Shown here: piece by piece, positions 3,545-32,000 of the stretch
Layout of the letters: every line of letters begins with the position of its first letter
Position numbering within the stretch: position 1 is the stretch's first letter
Source: Candidatus Aenigmatarchaeota archaeon
GTDB taxonomy: Archaea > Aenigmatarchaeota > Aenigmatarchaeia > JACPZZ01
Assembly: GCA_016202815.1 (NCBI GenBank)
Contig: JACQNZ010000002.1
Coordinates: 48,228 to 80,227 of the forward strand
Reading direction: 5' to 3'
DNA length: 32,000 bases
Translations under genes and position numbers: made by a program
Notes under the pieces: model-generated
Told to the model about the DNA's origin: nothing
The model's input: the letters and a program-made list of their open reading frames with translations, nothing else
Database searches by the model: none

Positions 3545-4045
3545 CTACATAAACTTTATGTCGCTGGACTCTATCGTGGCTGTCGCTGCCGCGTTGGATC
3601 CGCTGCAGTTGTGCGGTATTCTAACGCGCGTTATTGCGTTGCTGTCAACGCTTGTGTTGCTCACGGAAACAGGCACGCCCGGCGCCAAACTAAGGTTGGC
3701 CGGTGAAATAATGTACTCCGAGCTTGTGCCGTTGTTGAAAAGCACTATCATCCTGAAATCGCCCAGTGGCACGTTGCCCTGGTTGATAACTTCCGTGGAA
3801 AACCTCTTTGTAGTTGAATTGTAAACCGGGGTTTCAAACGCCAACCACGCCGACGAGCACCCGACTTGCTTCGATCCTTTTTCGTTTAGTATCTGCGTCT
3901 GTGTGCGCGAATAATCCAGCACCCAGTTGCTTAATATAATTGCTACGGCCATAGTGAATGCGACAAGAAGGACTGTCGCTACCAGCGGAGACAGCCCCTT
4001 TTTACCATTCTCTTTTGATTGAACTTTTAGTAAAAGTTCATACAT
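3545..4045 (-). CDS. Archaeal type IV pilin-like protein (class III signal peptide), paralog 1
   Basis: N-terminus MYELLLKVQSKENGKKG/LSPLVATVLLVAFTMAVAIIL, i.e. a basic leader ending in KG followed by a hydrophobic helix. It has 2 Cys and 5 N-x-S/T sequons. TATA-like AATATTTATT lies about 28 nt upstream. Confidence 0.75.
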   Translation of the reverse strand: MYELLLKVQSKENGKKGLSPLVATVLLVAFTMAVAIILSNWVLDYSRTQTQILNEKGSKQVGCSSAWLAFETPVYNSTTKRFSTEVINQGNVPLGDFRMIVLFNNGTSSEYIISPANLSLAPGVPVSVSNTSVDSNAITRVRIPHNCSGSNAAATATIESSDIKFM

Positions 4046-4082
4046 GATCAGTATTCGCCGACCTTAGCAATAAATATTAGCC

Positions 4083-4562
4083 TTACTGGCCTGTGACCGT
4101 GCCGGCAACAACGTACCTGCTCTGGCACACAGCCGTCACGCGCACCTCTTTCCAGGCAACGCCCGAAGGTATCTGGCCTGTTAGCAGGTAATTGGTCAGT
4201 TTCACAGAAGAACCGACCCCCAGGTTCCTGACAACGCTGTCAGTGTTCGGCGACGTCGTATTAACATAAGTCACGCCGTTTGCGTCCCTTACTGTGAAAC
4301 CTGTGATGTTCAATATTTCAGAACCTGTTGAATACGTAACCGTAACATTTGTGATGTTGCTTATGACTGAAATATCGTCGCGGTCTATGGACAGCGTCGA
4401 ATACGCGCACAGCGTCTGCTGCTCGCCCCGCGCGCCGATGTTGGATGTCTGCTGCTGGGTAAAATCGGTTATCCATGTGACCACAACCAATGCCGTGGCC
4501 ATCGTGAACGCGACCAATAAAACCGCCGCTATCAGAGGTGAAACGCCTTTCAGATGTCTCAT
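4083..4562 (-). CDS. Archaeal type IV pilin-like protein, paralog 2
   Basis: MRHLKG/VSPLIAAVLLVAFTMA. I prefer the start at 4562 because it avoids overlap with the upstream paralog (stop at 4573). It has 2 Cys and 4 sequons and is closely similar to paralog 3. Confidence 0.75.
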   Translation of the reverse strand: MRHLKGVSPLIAAVLLVAFTMATALVVVTWITDFTQQQTSNIGARGEQQTLCAYSTLSIDRDDISVISNITNVTVTYSTGSEILNITGFTVRDANGVTYVNTTSPNTDSVVRNLGVGSSVKLTNYLLTGQIPSGVAWKEVRVTAVCQSRYVVAGTVTGQ

Positions 4563-4572
4563 AACAACCCTT

Positions 4573-5043
4573 CTAGAACTTGACCGTACCCGTAACAACG
4601 TACTGGCTCTGGCACAATCCGGTCACGCGGAACTCCGATAGACCTAAACCGCTTGGTATATTACCTGTAAGGTTATAATTCACAAATTTTCGGCTTTCGC
4701 CTACGCCCATATTTCTTGCTGTTGAGTCTGCATTGAGGTTCGTTACATTGACATACGTCATCCCATTTACATCCCTCAGTGTGAAGCCTGTTATGTTTAT
4801 GGTTTCGGTTCCACCCGAGTATGTGATGGTCGCATTCATGTAAGCACCGATAACATTTACATCGTCCTTGTCGACGCTAAGAACGGAATAGCTGCACAAG
4901 ACCTGCCGCTCGCCGCGCGTGCCGATATTAGACGTCTGCTGCTGGGTAAAGCCTGTTATCCATGTGACAATGATAGCCGCCACAGCCATAGTGAACGCGA
5001 CAAGAAGGACTGACGCAATAAGCGGTGATATTCCCTTTCTCAT
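4573..5043 (-). CDS. Archaeal type IV pilin-like protein, paralog 3
   Basis: MRKG/ISPLIASVLLVAFTMA. The ATG at 5043 has GGAG about 6 nt upstream. It has 2 Cys and 4 sequons. Confidence 0.75.
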   Translation of the reverse strand: MRKGISPLIASVLLVAFTMAVAAIIVTWITGFTQQQTSNIGTRGERQVLCSYSVLSVDKDDVNVIGAYMNATITYSGGTETINITGFTLRDVNGMTYVNVTNLNADSTARNMGVGESRKFVNYNLTGNIPSGLGLSEFRVTGLCQSQYVVTGTVKF

Positions 5044-5091
5044 ATTTTTCTCCTTTTGATAATATAGTCCCAAAATCATATATAAAGCTTG

Positions 5092-5553
5092 TCAGACGCT
5101 CTTGTCAACAAACGAATATTCGGGACAATTCGAAACAACCCGGAACCTGGTTATGTTCGAAACCCCATTAACTATGAACGACCGCGGCTCGCCGGGCGGT
5201 AATGTAGTGTTTTGCCTGCCCACAACGCTGACGTCTGTATCGAGCGAAATGCGACCGATCCCGCTGCCGTTGTAAAGGAACAGCGTAAAGTTCTGCAGGC
5301 CTATCCTGCCGTCGTTGTTTATTATGAGGATCAGCTGGTTGCCGGCCTTGTCGTACGTGTAGGTATCAAGGTTCATGCGCGCGTAAACGCAGTTCGCTTC
5401 GTTGCCTTTTGTTGTTAACGTGGACGTTTGCTGCGTCATGTACTGCGTCGCCCATGTGGCCAGAATGGCCGCTATCGCCATGGTAAACGATATCAAAAGT
5501 ACCGAAGCGACCAGAGGTGAGACTCCCTTACCAAGAGGCGCCTTATCAACCAT
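5092..5553 (-). CDS. Archaeal type IV pilin-like protein, paralog 4
   Basis: MVDKAPLGKG/VSPLVASVLLISFTMAIAAIL. It has 2 Cys and 4 sequons. An AT-rich TATA-like stretch lies about 35 nt upstream. Confidence 0.75.
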   Translation of the reverse strand: MVDKAPLGKGVSPLVASVLLISFTMAIAAILATWATQYMTQQTSTLTTKGNEANCVYARMNLDTYTYDKAGNQLILIINNDGRIGLQNFTLFLYNGSGIGRISLDTDVSVVGRQNTTLPPGEPRSFIVNGVSNITRFRVVSNCPEYSFVDKSV

Positions 5554-19641: not shown

Positions 19642-20529
19642 ATGGAAGCGGCTGTTCTGGTCAGGAAAATAAAAAACCTGGAAATACAGGGCGCGAAAGC
19701 CGTTGCGCTCGCTGGTCTGGACGCGCTCAACCTGTGCGCATCTGAAATAAAATCAAATGGCAGGAACGGTTTTTTACGGACCCTGGAATCGAAATCAAAG
19801 CTGATCAAAGAAGCACGCCCCACCGAGCCGGCGCTGAAGAATGCATTAAGTTTTGTGATGGGCAGGCTTCCGAAAGCCGGAACCATCGAAGATGCCCAAA
19901 AAGCGGTTGCGCTCGAAGTCAGAAATTTCTCAAAAAACATCGAATCCTCGATAAAAAAAATAGGGGAAATAGGCGCGCGAAGAATACCAAATAAGGCCGT
20001 AGTGTTCACACACTGTCATTCGAACACTGTGATGGAAATATTCCGTTGCGCAAAAAAAGACGGCAAAAAATTCGAAGTAATCTGCACAGAAACGCGCCCG
20101 ATGAATCAGGGTTTATTGACAGCAAAACAGGTCGCTGGCATGCAAATACCGGTGACGCTTATCGTGGACTCGGCTGCGCGCACCTTTGTAAAAAAATGCG
20201 ACTTGGTGATCATAGGCGCTGACGCGATAACATCTACAGGCGATGTTGTGAATAAGGTCGGATCTTCGACAATCGCACTGATAGCGGAGGAACAAAAAAA
20301 GCCTCTTTATGTTGCCGCGGGCACGCACAAAATAGACCCCGAAACTGCCAAAGGTTTTTTGGAGCCGATAGAAGAGAGGCCAGCGAAGGAAATTACGGCA
20401 AAAAAACTAAAGGGTGTGAAAATAAGGAATCCGGCGTTCGACGTCGTCGCCGCGAACAGGATAAGCGGAATAATCACAGAACTTGGCATGGTAGCGCCGC
20501 AAAGCGTTAGCAGGTGGGCAAAAAATTAA
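19642..20529 (+). CDS. e2b2: eIF-2B alpha/beta/delta-family protein, likely ribose-1,5-bisphosphate isomerase
   Basis: FTHCHSNTV, CTETRP, IIGADAI and NPAFDVVAANRISGIITELG are eIF-2B-family motifs. The isomerase call rests on its position directly upstream of the AMP phosphorylase. Confidence 0.65.
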   Translation: MEAAVLVRKIKNLEIQGAKAVALAGLDALNLCASEIKSNGRNGFLRTLESKSKLIKEARPTEPALKNALSFVMGRLPKAGTIEDAQKAVALEVRNFSKNIESSIKKIGEIGARRIPNKAVVFTHCHSNTVMEIFRCAKKDGKKFEVICTETRPMNQGLLTAKQVAGMQIPVTLIVDSAARTFVKKCDLVIIGADAITSTGDVVNKVGSSTIALIAEEQKKPLYVAAGTHKIDPETAKGFLEPIEERPAKEITAKKLKGVKIRNPAFDVVAANRISGIITELGMVAPQSVSRWAKN

Positions 20530-20547
20530 TATCCTCTTGGTGTTTGT

Positions 20548-22098
20548 ATGAATCTTAAATCAAAACTGGCCGGCATAGAATCGGGCGGCGTTTTCGTTGT
20601 AATATTGAACCCGAAGGATGCCGCGGACATAGGCGTACATTCAACTGACCGGGTGAAAGTTTCCCGCAACGGCCGCGAAGCCGTATGCATCGTCGACGTT
20701 TCTAAAAGCTGGATATCCAAAGGCTCGCTCGGCATATACAGGGAGGTTGAAAAGGCGCTTTCCATAAAAGCCGGCGATGTTGTCGATGTGGCGGCGGCCG
20801 ACGCGCCTCGCTCCATGGAATTCATAACAAAAAAAATGAACGGTGCGCGCCTCAACAAGCAGGAAATGTTCGCTATAGTAAAGGACACCGTGGAACGTAA
20901 ATTGTCCGATGTTGAATTGACGGCATTCGTTTCCTCCCTTCATTTCAACGGCATGTCCATGGACGAGACCGTGGCACTGTCGACTTCGATGGCCGAAACG
21001 GGCAAGACGCTCGGGATAAAGGAAAAAATTATACTGGACAAGCATAATATAGGCGGCGTTCCGGGCGATAAGACGTCAATGCTGGTAGTCCCGATAATCG
21101 CTGCGGCCGGTTACAAGATCCCCAAGACAAGTTCGCGCGCAATAACATCCCCAGCCGGAACCTCGGACAGGGTGGAGTGCCTATGCCCTGTGGATTTGAG
21201 TGTTGAAGAAATTTTAAACACGGTTGAAAAAACAAACGGCTGCTTGGCATGGGGCGGCGCCGTTGATCTCGCTCCGGCAGATGACATGTTCATCCAGGTA
21301 GAATATCCATTGGCGATCGACCCGTTGTTATTGCCGTCAGTCATGTCAAAGAAAAAGGCCGTTGGTGCAACCCACGTTGTGATAGACATGCCAACTGGCC
21401 GCGGATCGAAACTAAAAACCATCGGCGCGGCGCACGCGCTGGCAAAGGATTTCATCGAACTCGGCAAAAACATGGGGATAATTGTCAATTGTGTTATAAC
21501 ATTCGGGGAGCAGCCGATCGGGTACGGCGTCGGCCCTGCCCTCGAGGCGCGCGAGGCGCTGGACGCGATATCAAACGTCTCATCGCCGCCCGACCTTGTT
21601 GAAAAGGCCGTAGACCTCGCAGGCGCGCTCCTTGAACTGGCCGGCGAAAGAAACGGCAAGGAGCTGGCATACAAACTCCTGAAATCGGGCAGCGCAGAGC
21701 GCAAGCTGCGCCAGATAATCGGGTCGCAGGGCGGTGACCCGAAAATAAAAACCAACGACATAGAAGTGGGGTCGCACATCGCAGAAATACGCAGCAAGAC
21801 GGACGGCATGATCTGGTGGATCGCAAACCATGACATTGTAAAAATTGCACGCGAAGCCGGGGCACCGAAGGACAAAGGCGCTGGCATATTATTCAGGAAA
21901 AAAATAGGCGATGCCGTAAAGAAAGGCGACGTTGTCATGGAGGTATACGCAGAGAACGAAAGGAAGCTGCACAACGCAATCGCGCTTGCAGAATCGCTCA
22001 ACCCAGTCGGCGTTTACGCGCGCCCGCAGGATCGCACGTTGATAGAAAAGGTGCCTGACGGGGAGGACCATAAAAAATTATTCATTCTGGAAAGGTAG
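20548..22098 (+). CDS. deoA: AMP phosphorylase (thymidine phosphorylase family with an N-terminal extension)
   Basis: 516 aa. The N-terminal ~85-aa extra domain (LAGIESGGVFVVILNPKDAADIGVHSTDRVKV) is typical of archaeal AMPpase. The core carries DKHNIGGVPGDKTS, SSRAITSPAGTSD and GGAVDLAPADD. Confidence 0.75.
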   Translation: MNLKSKLAGIESGGVFVVILNPKDAADIGVHSTDRVKVSRNGREAVCIVDVSKSWISKGSLGIYREVEKALSIKAGDVVDVAAADAPRSMEFITKKMNGARLNKQEMFAIVKDTVERKLSDVELTAFVSSLHFNGMSMDETVALSTSMAETGKTLGIKEKIILDKHNIGGVPGDKTSMLVVPIIAAAGYKIPKTSSRAITSPAGTSDRVECLCPVDLSVEEILNTVEKTNGCLAWGGAVDLAPADDMFIQVEYPLAIDPLLLPSVMSKKKAVGATHVVIDMPTGRGSKLKTIGAAHALAKDFIELGKNMGIIVNCVITFGEQPIGYGVGPALEAREALDAISNVSSPPDLVEKAVDLAGALLELAGERNGKELAYKLLKSGSAERKLRQIIGSQGGDPKIKTNDIEVGSHIAEIRSKTDGMIWWIANHDIVKIAREAGAPKDKGAGILFRKKIGDAVKKGDVVMEVYAENERKLHNAIALAESLNPVGVYARPQDRTLIEKVPDGEDHKKLFILER

Positions 22099-22099
22099 G

Positions 22100-23400
22100 A
22101 TAAAGTAGGATATGTGACATACTCCCACCTAAAAGGTGTAGGCTTCTTGCTTCCCTGACGGAACTGTCGCCCCATCTCCACAAGCGTTACTTCCCGCCTG
22201 CCCGGCGGTAGCTCTGATGAGTATATTCTTTGCAGCGTTCAAATCTCTGTCTATCACAAGACCGCAGAAAGGACAGTCATGTATCCTGTCTGAAAGTTCC
22301 TTCTTAACAATCTCGTGACAGTTGCTGCATCCTTGTGTAGTGTTTTTCGGGTCTACGAATACGATCTTGCAACCAGCTTCTTCCGCTTTGTAGCTGATCA
22401 TATTCGCAAACACATTCCATCCGGCATCGTTGATCGACTTGCCTAAGTTTTGTTTTGACATTTCTTTTGAGGCAAGTTTTTCAAGCGCTATGAAGGAATA
22501 ATCATTGACGATTCTTGTTGATGTCTTATGAAGGAAATCTGCTCTTGTGTTTGATACTTTTTCGTGAAGTCTTGCAACCTTGAGCTTTGCCTTCTTCCTG
22601 TTATTGCTTACTTTCTTTTTATTGGATAATTCCCTTTGCAGTTTGGCAAGGTTCTCTTCGTGCCGTTCCAGATGTCTTGGATTTTGTATGACTTCTCCGT
22701 TTGAAATGGTGGCAAAGGTTTTCAAACCCAAATCTATTCCTATTTGTTCTCCGTTATTTATCCTCGGTTCTTTTCTCTCCTGTCCAACACAGAACGTGGC
22801 GAACCATTTGCCTGAAGATTCCCTTTTCAATGTCAGGGTTTTTACTTCGCCTTCTATCTCACGATGTTTCTTGATGTTTATTTCTCCAAAAGGGGTTACT
22901 TTGAGTTTTTTATTGAGTGAAAAACCACTCTGCGGATAATTTAGGCTCTTTATTCTATCAATATTCTTGAAGCGAGGATAACCGCATTCCTTGCCCTGCT
23001 TTCTCATTTTGACCATGCGCCACAAAGCCCTTTGAAGCCTGTGCGATAATGTCTGCGCTACTTGAGAATACAAACCGCTGTTCTTTACCATTATTTGCAT
23101 TTCACTTTTTGTAAGGAATTTCCCTGTTTCATCATATTTTTTCTTGTTAGATTCAAGAAGCGTGTTCCACAGGTTCTTCTCTATCCAGAGATGTTCTTTC
23201 ATCTGAGTTTCCTGTTTCTTTGACGGGTAGATTCTGAATTTGTAGGTTCTCATGCTGCTTCGCCCTCACAACATCCTGTACATGTTCCAAATGCTTTTTA
23301 TGTTTTCGGTTGTGGTGTGCCGATATGGTTCGCTTCCATCCCGCCCCCGAAGAGCGTGGAATTTCCCGCTCACTCTGTTAAAATATTTAAGCGCGGACAG
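22100..23400 (-). mobile_element. TnpB-only IS200/IS605-type element (no tnpA); the boundaries are approximate
   Basis: The tnpB gene is flanked by a hairpin right after its stop (22105-22128) and by imperfect palindromes upstream (about 23325-23385). It appears more AT-rich than its neighbours. The exact ends cannot be set from one copy. Confidence 0.4.
22129..23253 (-). CDS. tnpB: TnpB (IS200/IS605-family OrfB, RuvC-like RNA-guided nuclease)
   Basis: MRTYKFRIYPSKKQ (OrfB N-terminus), RuvC-I IGIDLG, RuvC-II FIALEKL, Zn finger CSNC..CPFC, and RuvC-III DRDLNAAKNI. 374 aa and apparently intact. Confidence 0.85.
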   Translation of the reverse strand: MRTYKFRIYPSKKQETQMKEHLWIEKNLWNTLLESNKKKYDETGKFLTKSEMQIMVKNSGLYSQVAQTLSHRLQRALWRMVKMRKQGKECGYPRFKNIDRIKSLNYPQSGFSLNKKLKVTPFGEINIKKHREIEGEVKTLTLKRESSGKWFATFCVGQERKEPRINNGEQIGIDLGLKTFATISNGEVIQNPRHLERHEENLAKLQRELSNKKKVSNNRKKAKLKVARLHEKVSNTRADFLHKTSTRIVNDYSFIALEKLASKEMSKQNLGKSINDAGWNVFANMISYKAEEAGCKIVFVDPKNTTQGCSNCHEIVKKELSDRIHDCPFCGLVIDRDLNAAKNILIRATAGQAGSNACGDGATVPSGKQEAYTF

Positions 23401-23444
23401 CGTAATAATCAACCGTGACATTCGAAACGCTAGATTATTACGTT

Positions 23445-24269
23445 ATGAAAACTCTCGATGATCTGGAAAGTTGGGAATATCCTTCCCTCCCTTTAAAGCG
23501 CGACGGCAAAAACCTGTTCATCGGGAGCGGCAACGCCTCCAGCGTGGCCGGCATATTCGCAAAAAAATTCGGCGGTAACGCCGTAAGCATAGCGAATTAC
23601 AGGGAATATTTGTCGTCACAAAGCGGATCGGACTTCGCTTCGATAAACATAATCAACGCTTCGGGCGGCAAGGACGGCGTGAACATGGCTTCGTTCCTTA
23701 AACAAAACGGATTTAATTTCAACCTGCTGACATGCAATCCGCAACCGCCGGCCGGCGAATTCCTGCCGAAAGAAAACATATTCATTTTTCCTTCGTTCGT
23801 CGAACCGCCGACTTACAACGTGAGCACGTACGCGTCCATGATATACGCGATAATGAAAGAACGTGTGGCTGACATAAAAGAAAAAATAAGGACTATGGAA
23901 ATACCTGATCTCAGGAAATACAAATTTATTTTTTTTGTCGCAGAAGACAAATACGAACTGCCCGCAATAATGTCGGCGAGAAAAGTCGGCGAATCGTTGG
24001 CTGGTTTAGGTTCGGCCGGAGAAGGCATATCTTCAGCGCAGCATGGGATGATTGTGCATGAGAATGATAACCGCCTGGATTTCTGCATGAACTGCGAAAC
24101 AGGCACAAAAAACGTTTACAAGCTCGAAATACAATCGTACCTTGGGCTCGTGATGTCCGCCTATTACATCATAGGAAAGAACCAGACAGAATCGGATATG
24201 GGAAACATAATGAAAAATTACCAGTCAACGGCGCAAAAGCTCGGCTGGAAATTCAACAAGGTGTGGTAG
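23445..24269 (+). CDS. Hypothetical protein with weak SIS/sugar-isomerase-like motifs
   Basis: I prefer the ATG at 23445 to the GTG at 23415. FIGSGNASSVAG and INASGGKDGVNMASFLKQNG loosely resemble SIS-domain loops. The functional call is low confidence. Confidence 0.45.
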   Translation: MKTLDDLESWEYPSLPLKRDGKNLFIGSGNASSVAGIFAKKFGGNAVSIANYREYLSSQSGSDFASINIINASGGKDGVNMASFLKQNGFNFNLLTCNPQPPAGEFLPKENIFIFPSFVEPPTYNVSTYASMIYAIMKERVADIKEKIRTMEIPDLRKYKFIFFVAEDKYELPAIMSARKVGESLAGLGSAGEGISSAQHGMIVHENDNRLDFCMNCETGTKNVYKLEIQSYLGLVMSAYYIIGKNQTESDMGNIMKNYQSTAQKLGWKFNKVW

Positions 24270-24276
24270 TCGTAAC

Positions 24277-24354
24277 TGGAAACACACGCATCGTAAACTG
24301 AAGCATACCGTATGCTGTATCGGTATGCTTCTAGTTGTTATGCGTATGTTTCAG
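24277..24354. repeat. GAARCAT hairpin element, copy 3 (inverted orientation), a symmetric two-unit palindrome
   Basis: The core is GAAGCATACCG-TATGCTGTAT-CGGTATGCTTC (24300-24331). Outer units at 24279 and 24352 are symmetric about the same centre (21-nt spacing). Confidence 0.7.
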
Positions 24355-24366
24355 TCTGCTCCGACC

Positions 24367-24398
24367 AAAACCGATGCATACTATATTGCATCGGTTTT
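24367..24398. terminator. Perfect 12-bp hairpin flanked by T/A runs, overlapping the ogg stop codon
   Basis: AAAACCGATGCA-TACTATAT-TGCATCGGTTTT is followed by T on the plus strand. On the minus strand the hairpin ends in UUUU. This would be bidirectional terminator-like geometry. Confidence 0.4.
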
Positions 24399-25151
24399 TA
24401 GTTGTCTCGCATGGCAAAACAAATACTGGTTTGCATAGCCGGCGTATTTGCCCCACCTGTCAAAAGCAAAATCCGTTATTTTCGCGTCGCTTGTTTTTTT
24501 CCCGCCAAAATAATTTTCAGTCATTGTCTTCCGTATCCATGTATCTGTCGGAAACGACTCCAAAAAACCGTAGCCGAACAATAAAATACAATTTGCAACC
24601 TTATTCCCTATTCCGTGCAGCTTTGTTAAATGCCCAACCGCTTCCTCGTACTTCATTTTATTTATTTCGCTCATCGAATGCCCGCCGATAATCATCTCTG
24701 CGGTCTTTTTCAAAAATTTCTGGCGGAATCCCAGTCGCGCAAAATTTATGTCCGTGTTTAATATTTCTTCGGGCGTCATGACCCTGCCGCCGGCCATCAG
24801 CGACTGTACGTTTTTGCGGATCCGTTTTATGTTGTTGTTTATCGAGCAGACGAACGCCAGCGTCGTCTCCCACGGTTCGCTCTTCGTTATACGCAGCCCG
24901 CGGTATTTTTTAATCGCTTCATCCATTACGTCGTCCGTGTTTATTTTTTTGTATATCTTCTCCAGGTCGTCGTCCTCCCTGAGAAGCTCGTTGGCATAAT
25001 CCATAAAACCGTCTGTAAACCGCAACTCACCGTCGTGCCACAGCTCGCAAAGCCTCCCGCCGACCAGGCGCGAGAACCTTCCGTCTGAATCGTCCCAGAC
25101 AAACTCGGGCGTCTGCCCGCTTTTCATTGTTAATCGCAGATCAAGCAACAT
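24381..25151 (-). CDS. ogg: 8-oxoguanine DNA glycosylase/AP lyase (Ogg1-type, HhH-GPD)
   Basis: LRLTMKSGQTPEFVW, EPWETTLAFVCSINNNIKRI, and the HhH motif LHGIGNKVANCILLFG with the catalytic Lys, followed by FPTDTWI with the Asp. Confidence 0.8.
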   Translation of the reverse strand: MLLDLRLTMKSGQTPEFVWDDSDGRFSRLVGGRLCELWHDGELRFTDGFMDYANELLREDDDLEKIYKKINTDDVMDEAIKKYRGLRITKSEPWETTLAFVCSINNNIKRIRKNVQSLMAGGRVMTPEEILNTDINFARLGFRQKFLKKTAEMIIGGHSMSEINKMKYEEAVGHLTKLHGIGNKVANCILLFGYGFLESFPTDTWIRKTMTENYFGGKKTSDAKITDFAFDRWGKYAGYANQYLFCHARQLKTDAI

Positions 25152-25220
25152 CAAGCTATTATTCGGCCCTCGGCTTTAATAACGCTTATCTTTTTGATTG
25201 ACCTTTTATTAAAAGGTCAT

Positions 25221-26396
25221 ATGAAAACCCTTCTCATAATATGCGACGGCATGCCGGACGGGCCCGACGGACGCGGCGAGACGCCGCTATCGACGGCATA
25301 CCACCCGGGCTTGGATTTTCTGTCAAAGAACGGTTTAATCGGATTATTGGACCTGGAATACGAAAAAACCGCGGACACGGACGAAGGCACGCTGAAAATA
25401 CTGGGTTGTTACGACGGGTCATATCCGGGGCGCGGTTACATTGAAGCTTTGGCCACGGATGTGGAAACGCAAAAGGGCGACGTGTGTTTCCGCGCGAATT
25501 TCGCCACGCTGGACGATGAAAAGATTCTGGTCGATCGGCGTGCGGGACGCGATGAAACAGGCCTTGCCGAATTGGTCGAAGCTGTCAACAACATGGAAAT
25601 TGACGGCGTCCAGTTCATCGCAAAGCACGCATTAGGCCATCGCCTGATCATAGTGATGCGACGCATAGACGGCAAACCGCTTTCATGGAACATCGGATCG
25701 AACGACCCGAAAAAGACAAACGTGCCTGTAAAGGAGATAGCCGCAAAAACGCCCAACGCAAAGGTCACGGCAGGCGCGTTAAATAAATTTTTACGCAAAG
25801 CTAATAAAATCCTCTCGGAACATCCGATAAACAAAAAAAGGAAAGTCCCGGCAAACGCAATACTTGTCAGGAATGTCGGGCATCCCACGAAAACGAAAGG
25901 CTTTGAACAGCGTTACGGCAAAAAAGCCTGCATAATCGGCGCACACAGCACTATCGCAGGCGTCGCAAAATTCCTTGGCATGGATTTCATCAGGCCCGCT
26001 GGCGCGACAAGCCTGGAAGACACCGACCTTAACGAAAAAACAAACGAAGCGCTCGCTGCTCTGCAAAAATACGATTTTGTTTTGCTGCACGTGAATGCGT
26101 TTGACACGCTGTCGCATGACAGGAAGCGCGGCGAGAAAACCGCATTCATAGAGCGTTTCGACCAGGTCGTTGTGCGCAGGATTTTGGACAGGATCGACCT
26201 GAACAGGACGATAATCGCGGTCACAAGCGACCATTTTTCAAACTCGCTGTCAAAAGGCTACGAACATTCCGTCGAGCCGGTTCCGTTCGTAATTTGCGGC
26301 AACGGGATAAAAGCAACGAACACGGAAAAATACACGGAAAAAACCGCGGCTGGGTCAGGCATTGTGCGCAAAAGTATCATGGACATGATAGTTTAG
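25221..26396 (+). CDS. apgM: Cofactor-independent phosphoglycerate mutase, archaeal type (ApgM)
   Basis: MKTLLIICDGMPD...TPL, FRANFAT, VDRRAGR, HVNAFDTLSHD and AVTSDH. I prefer the ATG at 25221 to the TTG at 25194. Confidence 0.85.
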   Translation: MKTLLIICDGMPDGPDGRGETPLSTAYHPGLDFLSKNGLIGLLDLEYEKTADTDEGTLKILGCYDGSYPGRGYIEALATDVETQKGDVCFRANFATLDDEKILVDRRAGRDETGLAELVEAVNNMEIDGVQFIAKHALGHRLIIVMRRIDGKPLSWNIGSNDPKKTNVPVKEIAAKTPNAKVTAGALNKFLRKANKILSEHPINKKRKVPANAILVRNVGHPTKTKGFEQRYGKKACIIGAHSTIAGVAKFLGMDFIRPAGATSLEDTDLNEKTNEALAALQKYDFVLLHVNAFDTLSHDRKRGEKTAFIERFDQVVVRRILDRIDLNRTIIAVTSDHFSNSLSKGYEHSVEPVPFVICGNGIKATNTEKYTEKTAAGSGIVRKSIMDMIV

Positions 26397-26462: not shown

Positions 26463-27584
26463 TTAATCGACGTCGCCGTCCGATGAAGGTTTCTTGACGA
26501 TCTCAATAACCGCCACACCTTTGTCAGCATAACCGGAATAATTGTAGTTCTTTAACCCGATGTAATAACGCGCCTGGGCAACAGCCTCAAACGAACACGA
26601 GTCTATCGCTGTCCCGGATTTCGAAGACGAGCATTTCACAGCGCCGCACTCGCCGCCGTGCGCGCCCGCGCTGCCGGAGTCATAAACGTAAAGGTCCACA
26701 TCACTGTTGGTCTCTGCTGCCACAGCTACGCTCACAGCCCCTGAAAAGGTCGTGTTGAACACGTAAAAGGTTTCGCTGCCCATCGGCATCTCGCACGTTT
26801 TCGCAGACCCCGATGACGACAAGCCTGCTACGGCGCTTCCGATCCAATCCGCGTCACTGCACAATGTGCGGCATGGTTTGACTGGTGCAAGCGTCGTAGT
26901 TGTGCTGGTTGTTGTCGTAGTGGTTGCCGCAGAACCCGTCTTCACAACCGCCCCGTCCTGGAATTGTATCGTGCATCCTGCGGTTGCGTAAACATAATAA
27001 CCTGCACGCCCGTCGAGACTATCAACCTTCGGCGCTGACGCATCGCCGGATTTTGAGTTCTGCCATTTCTGAGCCGAGCCGTTAAAGTGCCACACCGGCA
27101 CGTTGTTCAGATTAACGCCGCTCCCGCAAACATCGGCTATGTCTTTTGGAACGAACAGACCCGAGGTGGGGTTGGATATCATGTTCCAGCCTTTGTAAAG
27201 CGTTACGCTCGCAGAGCTCGGCTTCGGCGGACCCGCAACACTGACAATGCATTTTTTGGATTCGTTGTTTCCCAGATAAACCCAATAACCTTTGTCGGAA
27301 GCCAGCCACGTTATCGCGGGCAAGCCGTCGTACACGCCTTTCGAATATTGCCACTTCTGCACCGAAGCGTTCAGATGCCACACAATCTGCGTTTGCGGAC
27401 AGGAGGCGTTTATAGTTCTCACATCCAGCACAGCGCCGACAGGCGACGATATCATGTTCCATCCGTTGGAATAAAGTGTTAAAACATTCGGCGTCGATGC
27501 ATCAGGTGCGGATGGGGGCGCTTGCGCAAAAACAAAAGACGCCAGCATGAGAAATCCAAAAATGAAGGCAATTTTATTTTTCAT
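26463..27584 (-). CDS. Secreted protein: Sec signal peptide, two ~85-aa repeats, poly-Thr linker, and a PPC-like C-terminal domain
   Basis: Signal peptide MKNKIAFIFGFLMLASFVFA/QAPP. Repeats at aa 33-117 and 126-210 share TLY-x-GWNMIS-xP...VWH-x-N-x-S-x-QKWQ-xSK...GY-x-VY. The TTTTTTSTTTT linker is followed by a C-terminal part (TNSDVDLYVYD) reminiscent of the pre-peptidase C-terminal domain. Confidence 0.6.
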   Translation of the reverse strand: MKNKIAFIFGFLMLASFVFAQAPPSAPDASTPNVLTLYSNGWNMISSPVGAVLDVRTINASCPQTQIVWHLNASVQKWQYSKGVYDGLPAITWLASDKGYWVYLGNNESKKCIVSVAGPPKPSSASVTLYKGWNMISNPTSGLFVPKDIADVCGSGVNLNNVPVWHFNGSAQKWQNSKSGDASAPKVDSLDGRAGYYVYATAGCTIQFQDGAVVKTGSAATTTTTTSTTTTLAPVKPCRTLCSDADWIGSAVAGLSSSGSAKTCEMPMGSETFYVFNTTFSGAVSVAVAAETNSDVDLYVYDSGSAGAHGGECGAVKCSSSKSGTAIDSCSFEAVAQARYYIGLKNYNYSGYADKGVAVIEIVKKPSSDGDVD

Positions 27585-27594
27585 GCTTTCACAA

Positions 27595-27951
27595 TCAAGG
27601 TGCCGGTGGTGTCGGTGGCACTCCGCCTGCCGCAGCTGTCGTTGTCACTACAACGCCCGGGCAGCCGCATCCGACTTTGACTGCAAGCTTGTCCGCGTCA
27701 GTGTCGCATGTCGCTTTGTTTAAAACAATCCCATTAGCGGCTGCGCACAATGATGTTGACGGGTCTCCGGCGCAGCCAGTATTCACTAAAACCTGGCATT
27801 CCTTGTTGAAATTCGCCCTTGACTGCTGGTTTGTGGCAAACGGACTCCAAACGCCCATGAATACCGCCACAATCGCGATTAGAATGATGACCGCTATGGC
27901 AAGGATAACAAGCATGTCAATGGGGAGTGAAACGCCCTTTCTTTTAGCCAT
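27595..27951 (-). CDS. Small Cys-rich pilin-like protein (class III signal peptide-like N-terminus)
   Basis: MAKRKG/VSLPIDMLVILAIAVIILIAIVAVFMG, then 6 Cys in about 50 aa, ending in a Thr/Ala/Pro-rich tail. 118 aa. Confidence 0.6.
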   Translation of the reverse strand: MAKRKGVSLPIDMLVILAIAVIILIAIVAVFMGVWSPFATNQQSRANFNKECQVLVNTGCAGDPSTSLCAAANGIVLNKATCDTDADKLAVKVGCGCPGVVVTTTAAAGGVPPTPPAP

Positions 27952-27982
27952 CTTGATCTTATTATCTATTTCTTTTCAATGG

Positions 27983-27990
27983 TTTAAATA
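27983..27990 (-). promoter_or_regulatory. TATA-like box (TATTTAAA on the minus strand) upstream of the small pilin-like gene
   Basis: It lies about 35 nt upstream of the ATG at 27951, in the only sizeable (53 nt) gap of the operon. No Shine-Dalgarno motif is present. Confidence 0.3.
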
Positions 27991-28004
27991 GTTAGTTCCT
28001 GGCA

Positions 28005-29393
28005 TCACACAGGAACAAGCACTGTCGGCGCGCAGGCAGAATTATCCGCGAGAAGTTCCGTGACAGTCGCGTAACCGCTTTTCATTGTTGTGCAGCTGTG
28101 TGTCATGAAATTGAATTTCAATGTTTCGTAAGGCAGCAGTTTGGCAACAGCCAACACAACGTTAAGCGTTTTCGACGGCACAAAACCGTTTGGATCCTCG
28201 GAAGAGTATTTTTCGTAGGCATCCGCAACAAATGTGAATTTTATTTTCTTGGTTATCGTGTCAGCAAAGCATGTTTTCGTTTTGCTTTCAACAACGCTCA
28301 CGCACTCGCAGGCTCCGCACGCTGGCGCAGCTCCGCACACCGGCTTAACGCACGCCCCGCTGTCGTAAACGCAGCCGTTATCGCACGTGTCGCCGGGCAG
28401 GGGCGCGCCGCACGTTTTTTTGAATTCGCATTTCCCGCAGGCGTTTTCAACCTTGTAGCCGCAGTCGAAAGAACAGGCTCCTGTTGACAGCAACGCGCCC
28501 GCGTCGTCGTAATTTGCCGACAAAGAGTGTTTCTCAAACTTCGCCTTGAACGACGTGAAAGGCTCGCCTGCCGGCGTGTTTGATATGGTGATAGCCGGCA
28601 GCTTCGGATAATCCGTTGTTGCCAAAACGTCCGCAGCCGTTGGTTCGACAGCGCTGGAAACAGGACACGCGTTGCTGTACTCGTCCGCAGGATCGCACTT
28701 CGCAACAGGCAACGCGCACTTCGCCGCCTCGTTGGTCGTTTCGCCTTCCGTTTTCACAGAAGCGAACGCCTCATTTACTGTTTTTTCAATTTCGCCGCTC
28801 CCCAAAAACTGCTTCGCAGCATCGTACAGCGCGAAATATTTTAATTTTATCTCGTTATCGATGTAGCCTTTCAGCGACGTCTTTATTTTTAAGCCCTGCG
28901 TATCAAGACCCTTAGAGACTTCGACGCCCTTGCTTCCCTTTACGTAAAATTTCTCCGATTTTGGAAAATCGCCGTTGTCCGGTATTACCTCCACTTCCGT
29001 GCTGCCATAGCTTATGGTTATGAACTTGCCGGCGATCGGATGGGATTGCACGTTTGCGATCTCGTCAACAATGTAACGCTTTAAGGTGTCTTTGATCGTC
29101 GCTTCGCCGGGCGCTGTTTTCCATATTGCTACGCCGTCCTTTTGCGGCACTGTGTTGTCCAACCCGCCCATTGCGCCTGCCCTTGACGCGCCTGTTTGCG
29201 CGTATGTTGGCACAGCCTCTTCCAGCGTCTTGCGCGACAGCTCCAGGTAATTGAGCGTCGAAAAGCTTTCCTTGTGCCGCTCGGAAACTATGAAGACTTC
29301 CGATGTGACAACGGACTTGAACCACCATATTATGAGCACTCCAAAAACTATGAAAACCGTGGTGCTCATGAAACGTACGATGCTTCCTTTCAT
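28005..29393 (-). CDS. N-terminally anchored, Cys-rich surface protein (462 aa), unknown family
   Basis: N-terminus MKGSIVRFMSTTVFIVFGVLIIWWF (helix). 18 Cys in total, 13 of them within aa 307-375. It starts 4 nt after the upstream stop. Confidence 0.55.
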   Translation of the reverse strand: MKGSIVRFMSTTVFIVFGVLIIWWFKSVVTSEVFIVSERHKESFSTLNYLELSRKTLEEAVPTYAQTGASRAGAMGGLDNTVPQKDGVAIWKTAPGEATIKDTLKRYIVDEIANVQSHPIAGKFITISYGSTEVEVIPDNGDFPKSEKFYVKGSKGVEVSKGLDTQGLKIKTSLKGYIDNEIKLKYFALYDAAKQFLGSGEIEKTVNEAFASVKTEGETTNEAAKCALPVAKCDPADEYSNACPVSSAVEPTAADVLATTDYPKLPAITISNTPAGEPFTSFKAKFEKHSLSANYDDAGALLSTGACSFDCGYKVENACGKCEFKKTCGAPLPGDTCDNGCVYDSGACVKPVCGAAPACGACECVSVVESKTKTCFADTITKKIKFTFVADAYEKYSSEDPNGFVPSKTLNVVLAVAKLLPYETLKFNFMTHSCTTMKSGYATVTELLADNSACAPTVLVPV

Positions 29394-29397
29394 ACAA

Positions 29398-29964
29398 TCA
29401 CTTTATCGTCGAATACAGCCGGTAAACCGCGGCCTTGCTGCAGGCGCCGCACGCGGGTTGCGGCAAATAAAATTCCATTTCCGCAACCTCGGCGTCAGAT
29501 ACAATTTTTTCTTTGTTCTTGGATGCTACGATAGTCCGTTTAGTTGCCGTCGACGCGCCGTTGCTGAATTCTTTTCTCAATTCGAATATGTACGGCCCCT
29601 GAACAAGGCTGTCGAATACCCCCTGCGAAAGCGCGCGGGCATCGTAAAGCTTGCCGTCGGCGTATGCGCTGCCGTCCCAGCCCAGGTCGCCGTCCCACTG
29701 GAACGCTGCCGCGGACAGGACGCTTTTCAGCGGGGCGTCCGACGCACTGGATTTTATTTCCAGCGCGGACAGCAACGAGTTCTCGTTGTTGAGGGAAAAT
29801 TCGAGGAACGTCGCGTGCACTGTCACCTTAATGAAATTTCCCACTATTATTTTTGCTATGCTCATTGAAAACATCAGGACCAGCGACGTAAAAAAAAGTA
29901 TGATGAGGAAAAAGAAGTCTGACATGAACGTTATGTCGCCCTTCATCCTGCTCTTGCGCGCCAT
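29398..29964 (-). CDS. Pilin-like N-terminally anchored protein, unknown family
   Basis: MARKSRMKG/DITFMSDFFFLIILFFTSLVLMF. The ATG at 29964 lies 1 nt after the upstream stop; alternative starts are at 29973 and 29946. Confidence 0.5.
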   Translation of the reverse strand: MARKSRMKGDITFMSDFFFLIILFFTSLVLMFSMSIAKIIVGNFIKVTVHATFLEFSLNNENSLLSALEIKSSASDAPLKSVLSAAAFQWDGDLGWDGSAYADGKLYDARALSQGVFDSLVQGPYIFELRKEFSNGASTATKRTIVASKNKEKIVSDAEVAEMEFYLPQPACGACSKAAVYRLYSTIK

Positions 29965-29965
29965 G

Positions 29966-30409
29966 CTAATCATACCTCGGGACGTAAACGCTCATCTTGC
30001 CGGCCAATACAGCATCGCTCACATTTACCGCAACAGGATATTCCCACAGCTTGTAATTTTCTTTGCGTATTGACACGTCTCCGAACTCCCATGTCCTGCT
30101 GTTGTCTGTAAGGTTTATCTGCAAATAATATTTCTTTATCTGGAAATCGAACTGCTGCCCGAATGTGGTTGCGTCAAGCTTGTCCAGCTTGTCCGCATCA
30201 AGCACCCCCTTCCTGTAGTCGGGTTCGCTCTGCGTCAAAAATGGCGCGCCCGCAAGGTATTGGCCGAACATCAAATTCAGCCTGTCAATCTGGTTCCCAT
30301 GGGCCTGGAGTGAAAAGTCCTGGAACTGCACTATCGAGCCTAACAATGCCACGATAGTTAGGACAAGAGACGCTATTTTTAGGAAATTTTCTGAAATGAA
30401 TGACGACAT
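29966..30409 (-). CDS. N-terminally anchored small protein, unknown family
   Basis: MSSFISENFLKIASLVLTIVALLGSIVQF is followed by a soluble ~115-aa domain. It starts 3 nt after the upstream stop. Confidence 0.5.
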   Translation of the reverse strand: MSSFISENFLKIASLVLTIVALLGSIVQFQDFSLQAHGNQIDRLNLMFGQYLAGAPFLTQSEPDYRKGVLDADKLDKLDATTFGQQFDFQIKKYYLQINLTDNSRTWEFGDVSIRKENYKLWEYPVAVNVSDAVLAGKMSVYVPRYD

Positions 30410-30412
30410 GCT

Positions 30413-30907
30413 TCACTTTCCTCCTATCGGGCTTGCGTAAACGCTTGTCTCCTTGCCGGTTTTTTTGACCGTGATTAACCAGCTTGTTGATTCGCTCATC
30501 TTGCCGCCTGCCGGTGCGGCCGCCTCGCTGTCCAGGGGTTTCACGCTATTCCCGCTGGCTGTGATAAGGTACAGCTTCTGCTTGGGCTGTATCTTCACTG
30601 TGGCGCCTTCCTGCACGCGGAATTTTTCCCTCGTGGAATCCATTGATATGAAATTGCTGTTTCCGTCCTTGTCTATGGAAATCTTGTACGGGTTGGGCTG
30701 CATCATAAAGCTCGCCTCAAAGCCCGGCGCCATGTCGGCCGCGGCCGCCAGGCCGAAAACGGTTTCTGCGGCAAGCCGCGAGTCAAAGCTGAAAACCAAA
30801 TCCCCCATGCTCGCGCCCGCAGTGATAATGAAATAAAGGCTTAACAAAAGAACTGCCAGTTCAGAAAGGAACACCATGAAATCCCGTACAATGATTATGC
30901 CTTTCAT
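30413..30907 (-). CDS. Pilin-like N-terminally anchored protein, unknown family
   Basis: MKG/IIIVRDFMVFLSELAVLLLSLYFII. The ATG at 30907 forms an ATGA overlap with the upstream stop. The track's longer start (30988) would overlap the upstream gene by 85 nt. Confidence 0.5.
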   Translation of the reverse strand: MKGIIIVRDFMVFLSELAVLLLSLYFIITAGASMGDLVFSFDSRLAAETVFGLAAAADMAPGFEASFMMQPNPYKISIDKDGNSNFISMDSTREKFRVQEGATVKIQPKQKLYLITASGNSVKPLDSEAAAPAGGKMSESTSWLITVKKTGKETSVYASPIGGK

Positions 30908-32000
30908 CCGTTGCACCCGCACACATTCTTGTAATCCGACTCGGCGACCTTGGCCAGCTGTTCCAGCGTGCAGCTGTCGCTGCCGCATATCAGCCTGTTC
31001 TTTTCCGCGTAATCAACGCCCTGGCACACGAAGTCTCCGGTGCATTGCGCTATGCCGCAACAAGCCGTCATGGAAAGCTTGGCAGCCTCTTTCGGGTTTT
31101 TCTGTATGTTGCAATTCAATACGTTCATGTCCTTGTTACCAAGCGATTGGAAAGGCTGGAAAGGCCATGTTGTGTCATACTCTGTCTTAACCTGTATTCC
31201 CGAACACGCGGGTTGCAAAAGGAAACCCACTGCTACAAGCTTTCCGAAATCCGCTATGACTGAACAGGCCAATGAACCGTAAAACCCTGCCGCCATCTCG
31301 TTGAACTTGCCTTCGTCAAAGTAGCAATAATTTGAATGTCCGGGCGTCGGGCATTTGTCCACGTCGGCCATTACGAGCGGTCTTCCCGCCTTGTCGTCGC
31401 CGGCGTTATAAAAACTGATCTGCGCTAAGCACGGGGAAACAAGATGGAACCTTGGCTTGTCATCAAATTGGAACGCCCCTACGCCGCCGCCAAGCGGGGA
31501 TATAAAACCGTCCCTTTTAAGCCGCACCATGACATTGTTTTTCACAACATACACGTCTTCATAACTTTTGATCTGGCTCTCCGAAACACCCTCCTTTTTC
31601 TGCTCAACCGTTTTCATGTTAAGGCATACGGTGTTCGACTCGCAGCCCGCGTTCGGCGATTTCAGGTATGAATATTTCACGTCGTTCTCGCTTGGCAGGT
31701 ACGTGCCTATTGTGAACGCGGACAGGTCGGTCTTGAGGAATTTTACAGTCTCTTTCGGCTCCCATCCGCCCAGCTTGTCGACTGTGCCTGAAAGGATCGA
31801 ATCGTATTTGTCCTCTGCCATGAGCGCGAGCGTTTCAGGCTCGCGTTTCCATGATGCGGAAAGCATCGCGATCTCCATAGCCTCGTCCCTGTCTATCAGT
31901 GCGCTGGCCGGGTCTGACGGGTCGATCCTTATGTTTTTTGCGTTTTTCAGCTCATTCTGGAAATCGGCTACAAGCCGCCTGGAATATTGCGGCGTGGAAA
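30904..32000 (-). CDS. Large Cys-rich exported protein; the N-terminus lies outside the window
   Basis: The frame stays open upstream of the Met at 31878 all the way to nt 32000 (checked by hand: ...STPQYSRRLVADFQNELKNAKNIRIDPSDPASALIDRDEAMEIAML...). The C-terminal 130 aa carry about 14 Cys and end in VCGCNG. Confidence 0.55.
   Translation of the reverse strand, partial: STPQYSRRLVADFQNELKNAKNIRIDPSDPASALIDRDEAMEIAMLSASWKREPETLALMAEDKYDSILSGTVDKLGGWEPKETVKFLKTDLSAFTIGTYLPSENDVKYSYLKSPNAGCESNTVCLNMKTVEQKKEGVSESQIKSYEDVYVVKNNVMVRLKRDGFISPLGGGVGAFQFDDKPRFHLVSPCLAQISFYNAGDDKAGRPLVMADVDKCPTPGHSNYCYFDEGKFNEMAAGFYGSLACSVIADFGKLVAVGFLLQPACSGIQVKTEYDTTWPFQPFQSLGNKDMNVLNCNIQKNPKEAAKLSMTACCGIAQCTGDFVCQGVDYAEKNRLICGSDSCTLEQLAKVAESDYKNVCGCNG

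Follow-up and report, generated by a model that had tools for sequence, protein, structure and literature searches.

A conserved four-gene cassette, probably of minor-pilin-like subunits with very short class III leaders, in a DPANN-type archaeal pilus operon

Why should three genes of one archaeal operon begin with the same three residues, each at the stop codon of the gene before it, and run straight into a hydrophobic helix? The question is raised by the window, the whole 32,000-nucleotide stretch of DNA that was analysed (G000:C1:48228-80227), which comes from the 0.95 Mb, nine-contig genome of a groundwater archaeon; public names of its orthologs assign it to Candidatus Aenigmarchaeota, a DPANN lineage. 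The open reading frame (ORF) listing of the window contains a run of tightly packed minus-strand genes, here called A to G (Table 1), and the three in question are B, D and E. An earlier interpretation made from the letters alone (the sequence-only reading) had taken their common Met-Lys-Gly (MKG) start for a class III, or prepilin, signal peptide, and had suggested a common route of processing and assembly into a filament base and an origin of the three genes as diverged paralogs. We consider it likely that B, D and E, together with a leaderless neighbor, C, make up a conserved cassette of four genes that encode minor-pilin-like subunits of a DPANN-type archaeal type IV pilus (T4P).

ORFs and translations confirm the shared start: B, D and E each begin 0-4 nucleotides from the upstream stop, with MKG and then a hydrophobic helix. 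The ATG of B, at 30907, overlaps the stop of the 900-residue gene A as ATGA, and the protein reads MKGIIIVRDFMVFLSELAVLLLSLYFII, MKGIIIVRDFMVFLSELAV. The ATG of D at 29964 lies one nucleotide past the stop of C, and this protein reads (MARKSR)MKGDITFMSDFFFLIILFF, MARKSRMKGDITFMSDFFFLIILFF; that of E, at 29393, lies four nucleotides past the stop of D, the protein reading MKGSIVRFMSTTVFIVFGVLIIWWF, MKGSIVRFMSTTVFIVF. All three have the layout of a class III signal peptide, with a basic residue at -2, Gly at -1 and a hydrophobic segment of ~20 residues within the first ~30. If a slash marks the predicted cut, the junctions are MKG/IIIVRDFMVFLSELAVLLLSLYFII in B and ..RMKG/DITFMSDFFFLIILFF in D. 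The predicted three-residue leaders occupy 30899-30907 in B and 29385-29393 in E. The KG codons of D are at 29938-29943, so that D begins MARKSRMKG/DITFMSDFFF from ATG 29964 or MKG/ from ATG 29946. Gene C, between B and D, begins MSSFISENF and has neither a KG nor a class III junction, unlike the picture drawn in the sequence-only reading; its homologs elsewhere often have KG. Such starts are rare in this genome. M[KR]G is found at the longest-ORF start of 9 of its 1050 proxy genes, and M[KR][GA] followed by a hydrophobic segment at only 24 candidate starts genome-wide; we estimate from those counts that three of four adjacent genes would show such a start about 0.006 times per genome.

Computation also establishes that the motif is conserved. 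The GTDB family and order of this archaeon comprise eight genomes only. E was matched in 8/8 and B in 7/8 (there was no match in the incomplete G006), and orthologs of the remaining genes are present wherever contigs extend far enough. [KR]G is kept across the orthologs of B, D and E while the leaders before it vary, as expected of a class III cleavage site. Every sequence of the B alignment (14 sequences, 42-77% identity) has G3, R8, D9, F10 and E16, with K or R at position 2 in 14/14, and leaders read MKG, MPGLKG or MPVMKG. In one genome, G001, a GTT codon precedes the KG of B and the KG is still kept; since GTT is unable to start translation, this B must start 8-12 codons upstream, with a leader of at least 11 residues. 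The invariant R8-D9-F10 and E16 fall within the presumed hydrophobic N-terminal helix, and a Glu at about +13 is also seen in remote B homologs (..FVGELF, ..FVMEVF). A longer start for B (the ORF is open to 30988, overlapping A) is unlikely, as L012 has no in-frame upstream start and the ATGA overlap is conserved.

The D family (11 sequences) has K/R-rich, poorly conserved leaders of 4-18 residues before a conserved K8 and a G9-D10 that is invariant in 11/11. Given these variable leaders, the start at 29964 is favored for D in the window, with 29946 as the alternative. Members of the close E family (16 sequences) all start M-[KR]-G, except for one truncated gene call, and a Shine-Dalgarno-like GGTGA lies 6-7 nucleotides upstream of the E start. 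In 6/8 E loci there is either a stop in frame 0-3 codons upstream or no intervening start codon, which bars a longer leader there and forces the three-residue leader first read from the sequence. One public gene call for E (P0026, 454 residues) starts at Met9; we rejected this start, because Met9 is I or S in orthologs and M1-[KR]-G is conserved.

The E profile, searched against 1.84 billion representative proteins, gave 32 matches, 30 of them remote, which have the N-terminal ~200 residues in common. Remote N-termini read MKG/, MKA/, MKKG/, MRKG/, MSNKKG/, MYNKKG/, MLVNMKG/ and others. A [KR][GA] junction is present in 38/45 close and remote members, and the other seven are truncated or miscalled starts inside the hydrophobic segment. 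Leaders of the 38 are three residues long in 20, four in 4, five in 1, six in 9, seven in 3 and ten in 1. An acidic residue at +1 to +10 occurs in only 2/38 junction-bearing E members; most B, C, D and F-like proteins carry D or E at +2 to +7. Relatives of E end in VWA, dockerin or PKD plus papain-protease modules, and this variety suggests that the N-terminal module acts as a carrier for surface modules. The Cys-rich module of E itself belongs to no recognizable family.

The arrangement recurs in distant loci. We examined eleven remote loci, all from metagenomes that carry no taxonomy, made up of the contigs of six remote E homologs and five loci from a phylum-wide search in which the E profile matched 14/371 genomes, a number limited by profile sensitivity. 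The order B-C-D-E is kept in the eight close and the eleven remote loci. An intact remote locus begins with ATPase, platform protein, small pilins and a protein of ~820-1000 residues, which holds the position of gene A in most remote loci; it continues with three genes (small in most loci), an E homolog and at least one F-like pilin ([MV]KG/[IVL]ELPIN...), often with a Sec-signal protein and an Alba gene beyond. Hidden Markov models (HMMs) of the close B, C, D and E families match positions 1, 2, 3 and 4, respectively, without cross-matches; the C model, for instance, finds the position-2 genes of L030, L024, L026, L028, L044-L048 and others. In the window's own genome each model matches its own gene only, and all four families are single-copy. 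This specificity for position indicates an old cassette of four distinct families in fixed order.

The [KR][GA] junction is present in the remote loci at position D in 10/10, at E in 11/11, at B in 6/10 and at C in 5/10, the tallies for B and C being based on ORF starts, with upstream in-frame stops checked in some loci. All four cassette genes start MKG in L024, and 10/13 operon genes start [MV]KG in L029. The B and C ORFs that lack a junction start M-[ST]-E... (MSELMKDF, MSEITKDF, MSELIPETL, MSEIMPETF), and C of the window is of the same type. Where checked, these leaderless starts are fixed by an in-frame stop just upstream, and they align within one residue of the predicted cut of KG-bearing homologs (KG/QSELT.., KG/QEEIM..). 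Homologs of C start with MKG/QSEL.. or MKG/FLEL.., or else directly with MSEL.. or MSEI... Judged from these alignments, the leaderless variants are the strongest computational evidence to hand on where the mature N-terminus lies. Pilin-like subunits with a translation start that mimics a processed N-terminus have not, to our knowledge, been described before.

Genes A to G are the tail of an ordered, same-strand T4P string of ~16 genes (L001 1132-11954, which is G000:C1:79131-89953, together with window 26463-30907). The operon ATPase (757 residues) matches PF00437 T2SSE at 70 bits and TadA/FlaI-like NCBIfam models at E~1e-41. It is followed by a 688-residue polytopic membrane protein with a weak T2SSF match, the platform protein, and the upstream operon also encodes a 146-residue membrane protein. 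At least six of the genes upstream encode a canonical [KR]G junction followed by a hydrophobic helix, with N-termini such as MKYRKG/IQTEMLVII, MVRKG/LSQNALTLIL (524 residues), MGKKG/VSEYNIAVF, ..FKG/QSDDALMVIL and ..SAKG/MLAIDTMILIL. Gene A has orthologs of 52-59% identity in the genus. Gene F, the orthologs of which are 70-92% identical and frequently duplicated, is likely the major pilin. Linkage of ATPase and platform protein to the cassette is also seen in L030.

The class III reading had called for a PibD/FlaK/EppA-type peptidase, and a search of the genome found one A24 prepilin peptidase gene, so the objection that no peptidase exists falls. It is the only one in the genome. Its PF01478 score is 32.5 bits, the cut-off being 26.5 (30.1 bits for the 288-residue ORF), and, aligned to FlaK (3S0X), it has Asp at both catalytic positions, D22 and D82/D84 (A-D-G-D motif). 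A FlaFind-like scan of the genome returned ~30 plausible class III proteins. Short leaders are common among them: besides B, D and E, at least ten have leaders of 3-4 residues: MKA/[VI]TPVIALVML (at least eight copies), MKKG/, MTKG/ and MFKG/. With a single A24 peptidase, the enzyme would have to accept both long and three-residue leaders, as PibD does. Where PMC4187195 and PMC4307647 cite Ng et al. 2009, PibD is described as cleaving engineered leaders of three and four residues.

We propose a model where B, C, D and E would each insert in the membrane with the N-terminus in the cytoplasm. The single A24 (PibD/FlaK-type) aspartyl peptidase would cut after the Gly of [KR]G, removing M-K-G from B and E and probably M-A-R-K-S-R-M-K-G from D. 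Once exposed, the hydrophobic helix would allow assembly of a filament in which the TadA/FlaI-like ATPase and the platform protein combine the subunits with the small pilin F. More speculatively, and by analogy with GspH-I-J-K and FimU-PilV-W-X, the four cassette proteins could act as a priming or tip complex. E may be its distal subunit, being the largest, having no N-terminal acidic residue and having relatives with adhesin or enzyme modules. Support for the filament base, where the sequence-only reading had placed these proteins, does not exceed that for a position at the tip or in priming.

Several points weigh against this model. Pfam and NCBIfam scans of A to G gave no meaningful match, and none to a pilin family (Pilin_N PF07790 and others) for B, C, D, E, F or G. 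AlphaFold2 models from shallow family alignments gave B helices at 2-38 and 43-59 followed by eight strands, at low confidence (predicted local distance difference test, pLDDT, 57.7), and gave D a helix at 7-67 followed by an alpha/beta domain (pLDDT 72.5). As modeled, a long N-terminal helix with a globular domain fits a pilin. Foldseek comparison of the B and D models with the PDB found no pilin (best E=0.03-0.25, TM score, a measure of fold similarity, at most 0.27); its chance-level matches were ribosomal protein uS3/uS4-like chains and crystallin domains. PDB profile searches with B, D and E gave no match either. The charged R8, D9 and E16 of B are invariant inside what is supposed to be a hydrophobic helix, and the leaderless homologs imply that processing is unneeded at positions B and C, so that cleavage may matter little. 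The sole peptidase appears nearest to FlaK, if weakly, and FlaK requires leaders of at least five residues according to the passage of PMC4187195 that cites Ng et al. 2009. The tip-complex role, finally, is speculative and drawn by analogy. A link of C to Pfam DUF7285 (2/12 members, best E=0.011) was too weak to use.

The missing pilin match, the leaderless homologs that work without a cleavable leader and the reported failure of FlaK, in that same passage of PMC4187195, to cut leaders shorter than five residues could also describe proteins that are never cut at all. B, D and E would then be bitopic signal-anchor proteins, perhaps platform or stator accessories comparable to PilN/PilO or archaeal ArlF/ArlG, and MKG would reflect a preference for Lys as second residue together with coincidence; 113/1050 proxy genes do start MK. 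We judge this quite improbable. Coincidence would not keep the Gly invariant and the Lys/Arg conserved behind leaders of 6-18 residues or behind a codon that cannot start translation, nor would it place the leaderless starts within one residue of the predicted cut. An identical MKG start is found in genes of these operons that are pilin-like beyond doubt, and a cytoplasmic stub of three residues would be unable to bind a cytoplasmic partner as PilN does. Far less probable still is a reading of the N-termini as plain Sec (class I) or lipoprotein signals of proteins that are merely secreted. Each does have a hydrophobic N-terminal segment and the neighbor G has a clear Sec-type signal, but the n-region measures only 1-2 residues, no A-x-A-type site or lipobox follows the hydrophobic stretch, and the conserved position lies before that stretch, not after it. 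The stretch is moreover part of a helix of 37-60 residues in the AlphaFold2 predictions.

If B, D and E had arisen when a single pilin gene was duplicated in tandem, with the N-terminus inherited and not functionally convergent, this would account for their adjacency and for the MKG and helix common to all three. Pilin globular domains evolve very fast (PMC4858521), and the modeled topologies of B and D are broadly similar, a long helix and then a sheet. Profile-profile comparison by hhalign, however, gave probabilities of 0.16% for B and D, 0.44% for B and E and 0.09% for D and E, and each HMM is confined to its own position in the eleven remote loci and to its own gene in this genome. The claim of diverged paralogs thus finds no backing, and we regard it as unlikely. 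The four families were already distinct at the deepest divergence sampled, as the position-specific models imply; any common origin is older and undetectable. A common route of processing and assembly accounts for the shared N-terminus better than paralogy does.

Among known systems, the minor-pilin-like cassette is closest in kind to the archaeal class III proteins that PibD, FlaK or EppA process (Methanococcus maripaludis EpdA-E, the Aap and Ups pilins of Sulfolobus and sugar-binding proteins), with which it has in common [KR]-G before an N-terminal hydrophobic helix of ~20 residues. As with archaeal type IV pilins, the operon also encodes a VirB11-family ATPase and a TadC/FlaJ-like platform protein, and the genome encodes an A24 peptidase. 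Other archaeal T4P loci, too, contain several minor pilin genes that are not homologous to one another (Makarova et al. 2016, PMC4858521). It differs in that the leaders of B and E are at the three-residue minimum, which is the commonest length in the E family, that the families lie outside Pfam and NCBIfam, that some homologs are leaderless and that the helix of B has an invariant RD and E.

A further likeness is to the bacterial tip complexes GspH-I-J-K, FimU-PilV-PilW-PilX (with PilY1) and ComGD-G, which likewise consist of four adjacent, mutually non-similar minor pilin genes in fixed order. The largest and last member, E, has no N-terminal acidic residue, like GspK and PilX, which lack Glu5 and are located at the tip (PMC7541494). 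The Sec-signal protein G has its gene close by, as does PilY1. No homology to GspH/I/J/K or FimU/PilV/W/X was found in sequence or structure (Pfam, NCBIfam, PDB profiles, Foldseek), and we read the resemblance as one of functional analogy only. Unlike these systems, the cassette belongs to a one-membrane archaeon, and the acidic residue of B, C and D lies at +2 to +7 and not strictly at +5. The VWA, dockerin and PKD-papain modules of E relatives, set on a conserved pilin-like N-module, recall the modular pilins of Streptococcus sanguinis (PilB with vWA, PilC with a lectin; PMC8179133, PMC9934059), although the pilin module and the domain of life are different and E carries its unplaced Cys-rich module. 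Other short-leader pilins of this genome resemble PilC in their pentaxin or concanavalin A (ConA)-like lectin modules. One protein of the MKA/ family has pentaxin / Laminin_G_3 (ConA-like lectin) modules (E=7e-26), and from such matches the family members look like modular pilins comparable to PilC.

Attachment to host cells is the presumed way of life of DPANN archaea, and pili are leading candidates for making that contact; DPANN pilus genes are mostly annotated as hypothetical. It has been proposed that unannotated signal-peptide proteins encoded next to the secretion ATPase and TadC genes in DPANN are probably diverse pilins (Makarova, Wolf, Koonin 2019, PMC6393860). To the general idea given there, the present analysis adds that the order B-C-D-E is fixed, how often the junction occurs, that leaderless variants exist and that the E family is acid-less. 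A 2026 survey found ordered type IV filament (T4F) loci to be rare in DPANN, with scattered pilins (PMC13705601). In contrast, the locus described here and its relatives are fully ordered, and the difference probably lies in pilins that match no HMM.

It is tempting to speculate, by analogy with the bacterial tip complexes, that B-C-D-E is a conserved DPANN module of four subunits that primes and caps the T4P, with acid-less E at the tip displaying interchangeable adhesin or enzyme modules for host contact, and with the shortest M-K-G leader or, in some lineages, none. We offer this as a tentative proposal. If it is true, the 'unordered' DPANN T4F loci of PMC13705601 would be a detection artefact, their pilins being invisible to current HMMs. 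The variable C-terminal modules of the candidate tip family E could then decide what the cell adheres to. For experiment, the cassette supplies four testable families in fixed order and a precise predicted cleavage site, with natural leaderless variants that mark the mature N-terminus. Three-residue class III leaders, which PibD cleaves on engineered substrates, would be the commonest natural form in this system. The kind of pilin is itself known; new, if confirmed, would be that the cassette is fixed, that three-residue leaders prevail, that some members are leaderless and that the E family is modular and acid-less.

Table 1. Locations of the operon genes, their leaderless relatives and other features (a slash marks a predicted cut)
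Feature	Location	Strand	Description
Gene A, 3' part	window 30904..32000	-	900-residue class III signal peptide protein, MANSKG/ASQDTIFLILGLVIF (N-terminus MANSKG/ASQDTIFLIL); start beyond the window at G000:C1:81833 (L001 1132-3834)
Gene B	window 30413..30907	-	164 residues, cassette position 1, MKG/IIIVRDFMVFLSELAV
Gene C	window 29966..30409	-	147 residues, cassette position 2, leaderless type, no KG; MSSFISENFLKIASLVLTIVALLG
Gene D	window 29398..29964	-	188 residues from ATG 29964 or 182 from ATG 29946, cassette position 3
Gene E	window 28005..29393	-	462 residues, cassette position 4, largest member, Cys-rich module; MKG/SIVRFMSTTVFIVFGVLIIWWF
Gene F	window 27595..27951	-	118 residues, canonical class III signal peptide, MAKRKG/VSLPIDMLVILAIAVIILI, VSLPIDMLVILAIAV
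Gene G	window 26463..27584	-	373 residues, Sec-type signal peptide MKNKIAFIFGFLMLASFVFAQA; secreted, last of operon
Leaderless B/C members	window 29966-30409	-	gene C
Leaderless B/C members	L028 6424-6933; L030 7940-8524; L045 6207-6698; L047 2801-3217		remote loci
A24 prepilin peptidase	G000:C6:103186-103533	-	288-residue ORF
MKA/ family	G000:C2:52397-53380	+	MKA/[VI]TPVIALVMLLLIT, three-residue leader; from the genome scan
MKA/ family, at least seven similar genes	C2:20782; C2:49124; C3:176131; C5:16470; C5:36595; C8:14148; C6:115094
Pilin/archaellin-like cluster	window 3545-5553	-	four tandem paralogs of 153-171 residues, ..KG/VSPLIAAVLLVAFTMA..
Sec-signal protein closing remote operons	L024 10919-11923; L030 11009-12073		follows the pilin, as G does
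Alba (PF01918)	L024 11963-12271; L026 9669-9980; L028 11184-11486; L029 17836-18162; L030 12662-12814; also L044, L046, L048		just downstream of the pilus operon

Apart from the operon, the window holds a second pilin/archaellin-like cluster of tandem paralogs, one gene of which has a weak match to Pfam Pilin_N (E=0.005).

Gene G has a weak PPC domain match. L024 and L030 likewise have the gene of a Sec-signal protein behind the pilin at the end of the operon, and a GWNMI motif is present in the proteins of the window and L024. PilY1 is a Sec-exported partner of bacterial minor pilins, and the position of G recalls it, a speculative parallel drawn by analogy. In most remote loci the pilus operon is followed directly by an Alba gene. 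In L030 the neighborhood also includes the phosphomutase, AMP phosphorylase and eIF-2B-like genes seen at window 19642-26396, and the L030 copy has a RuBisCO gene in addition.

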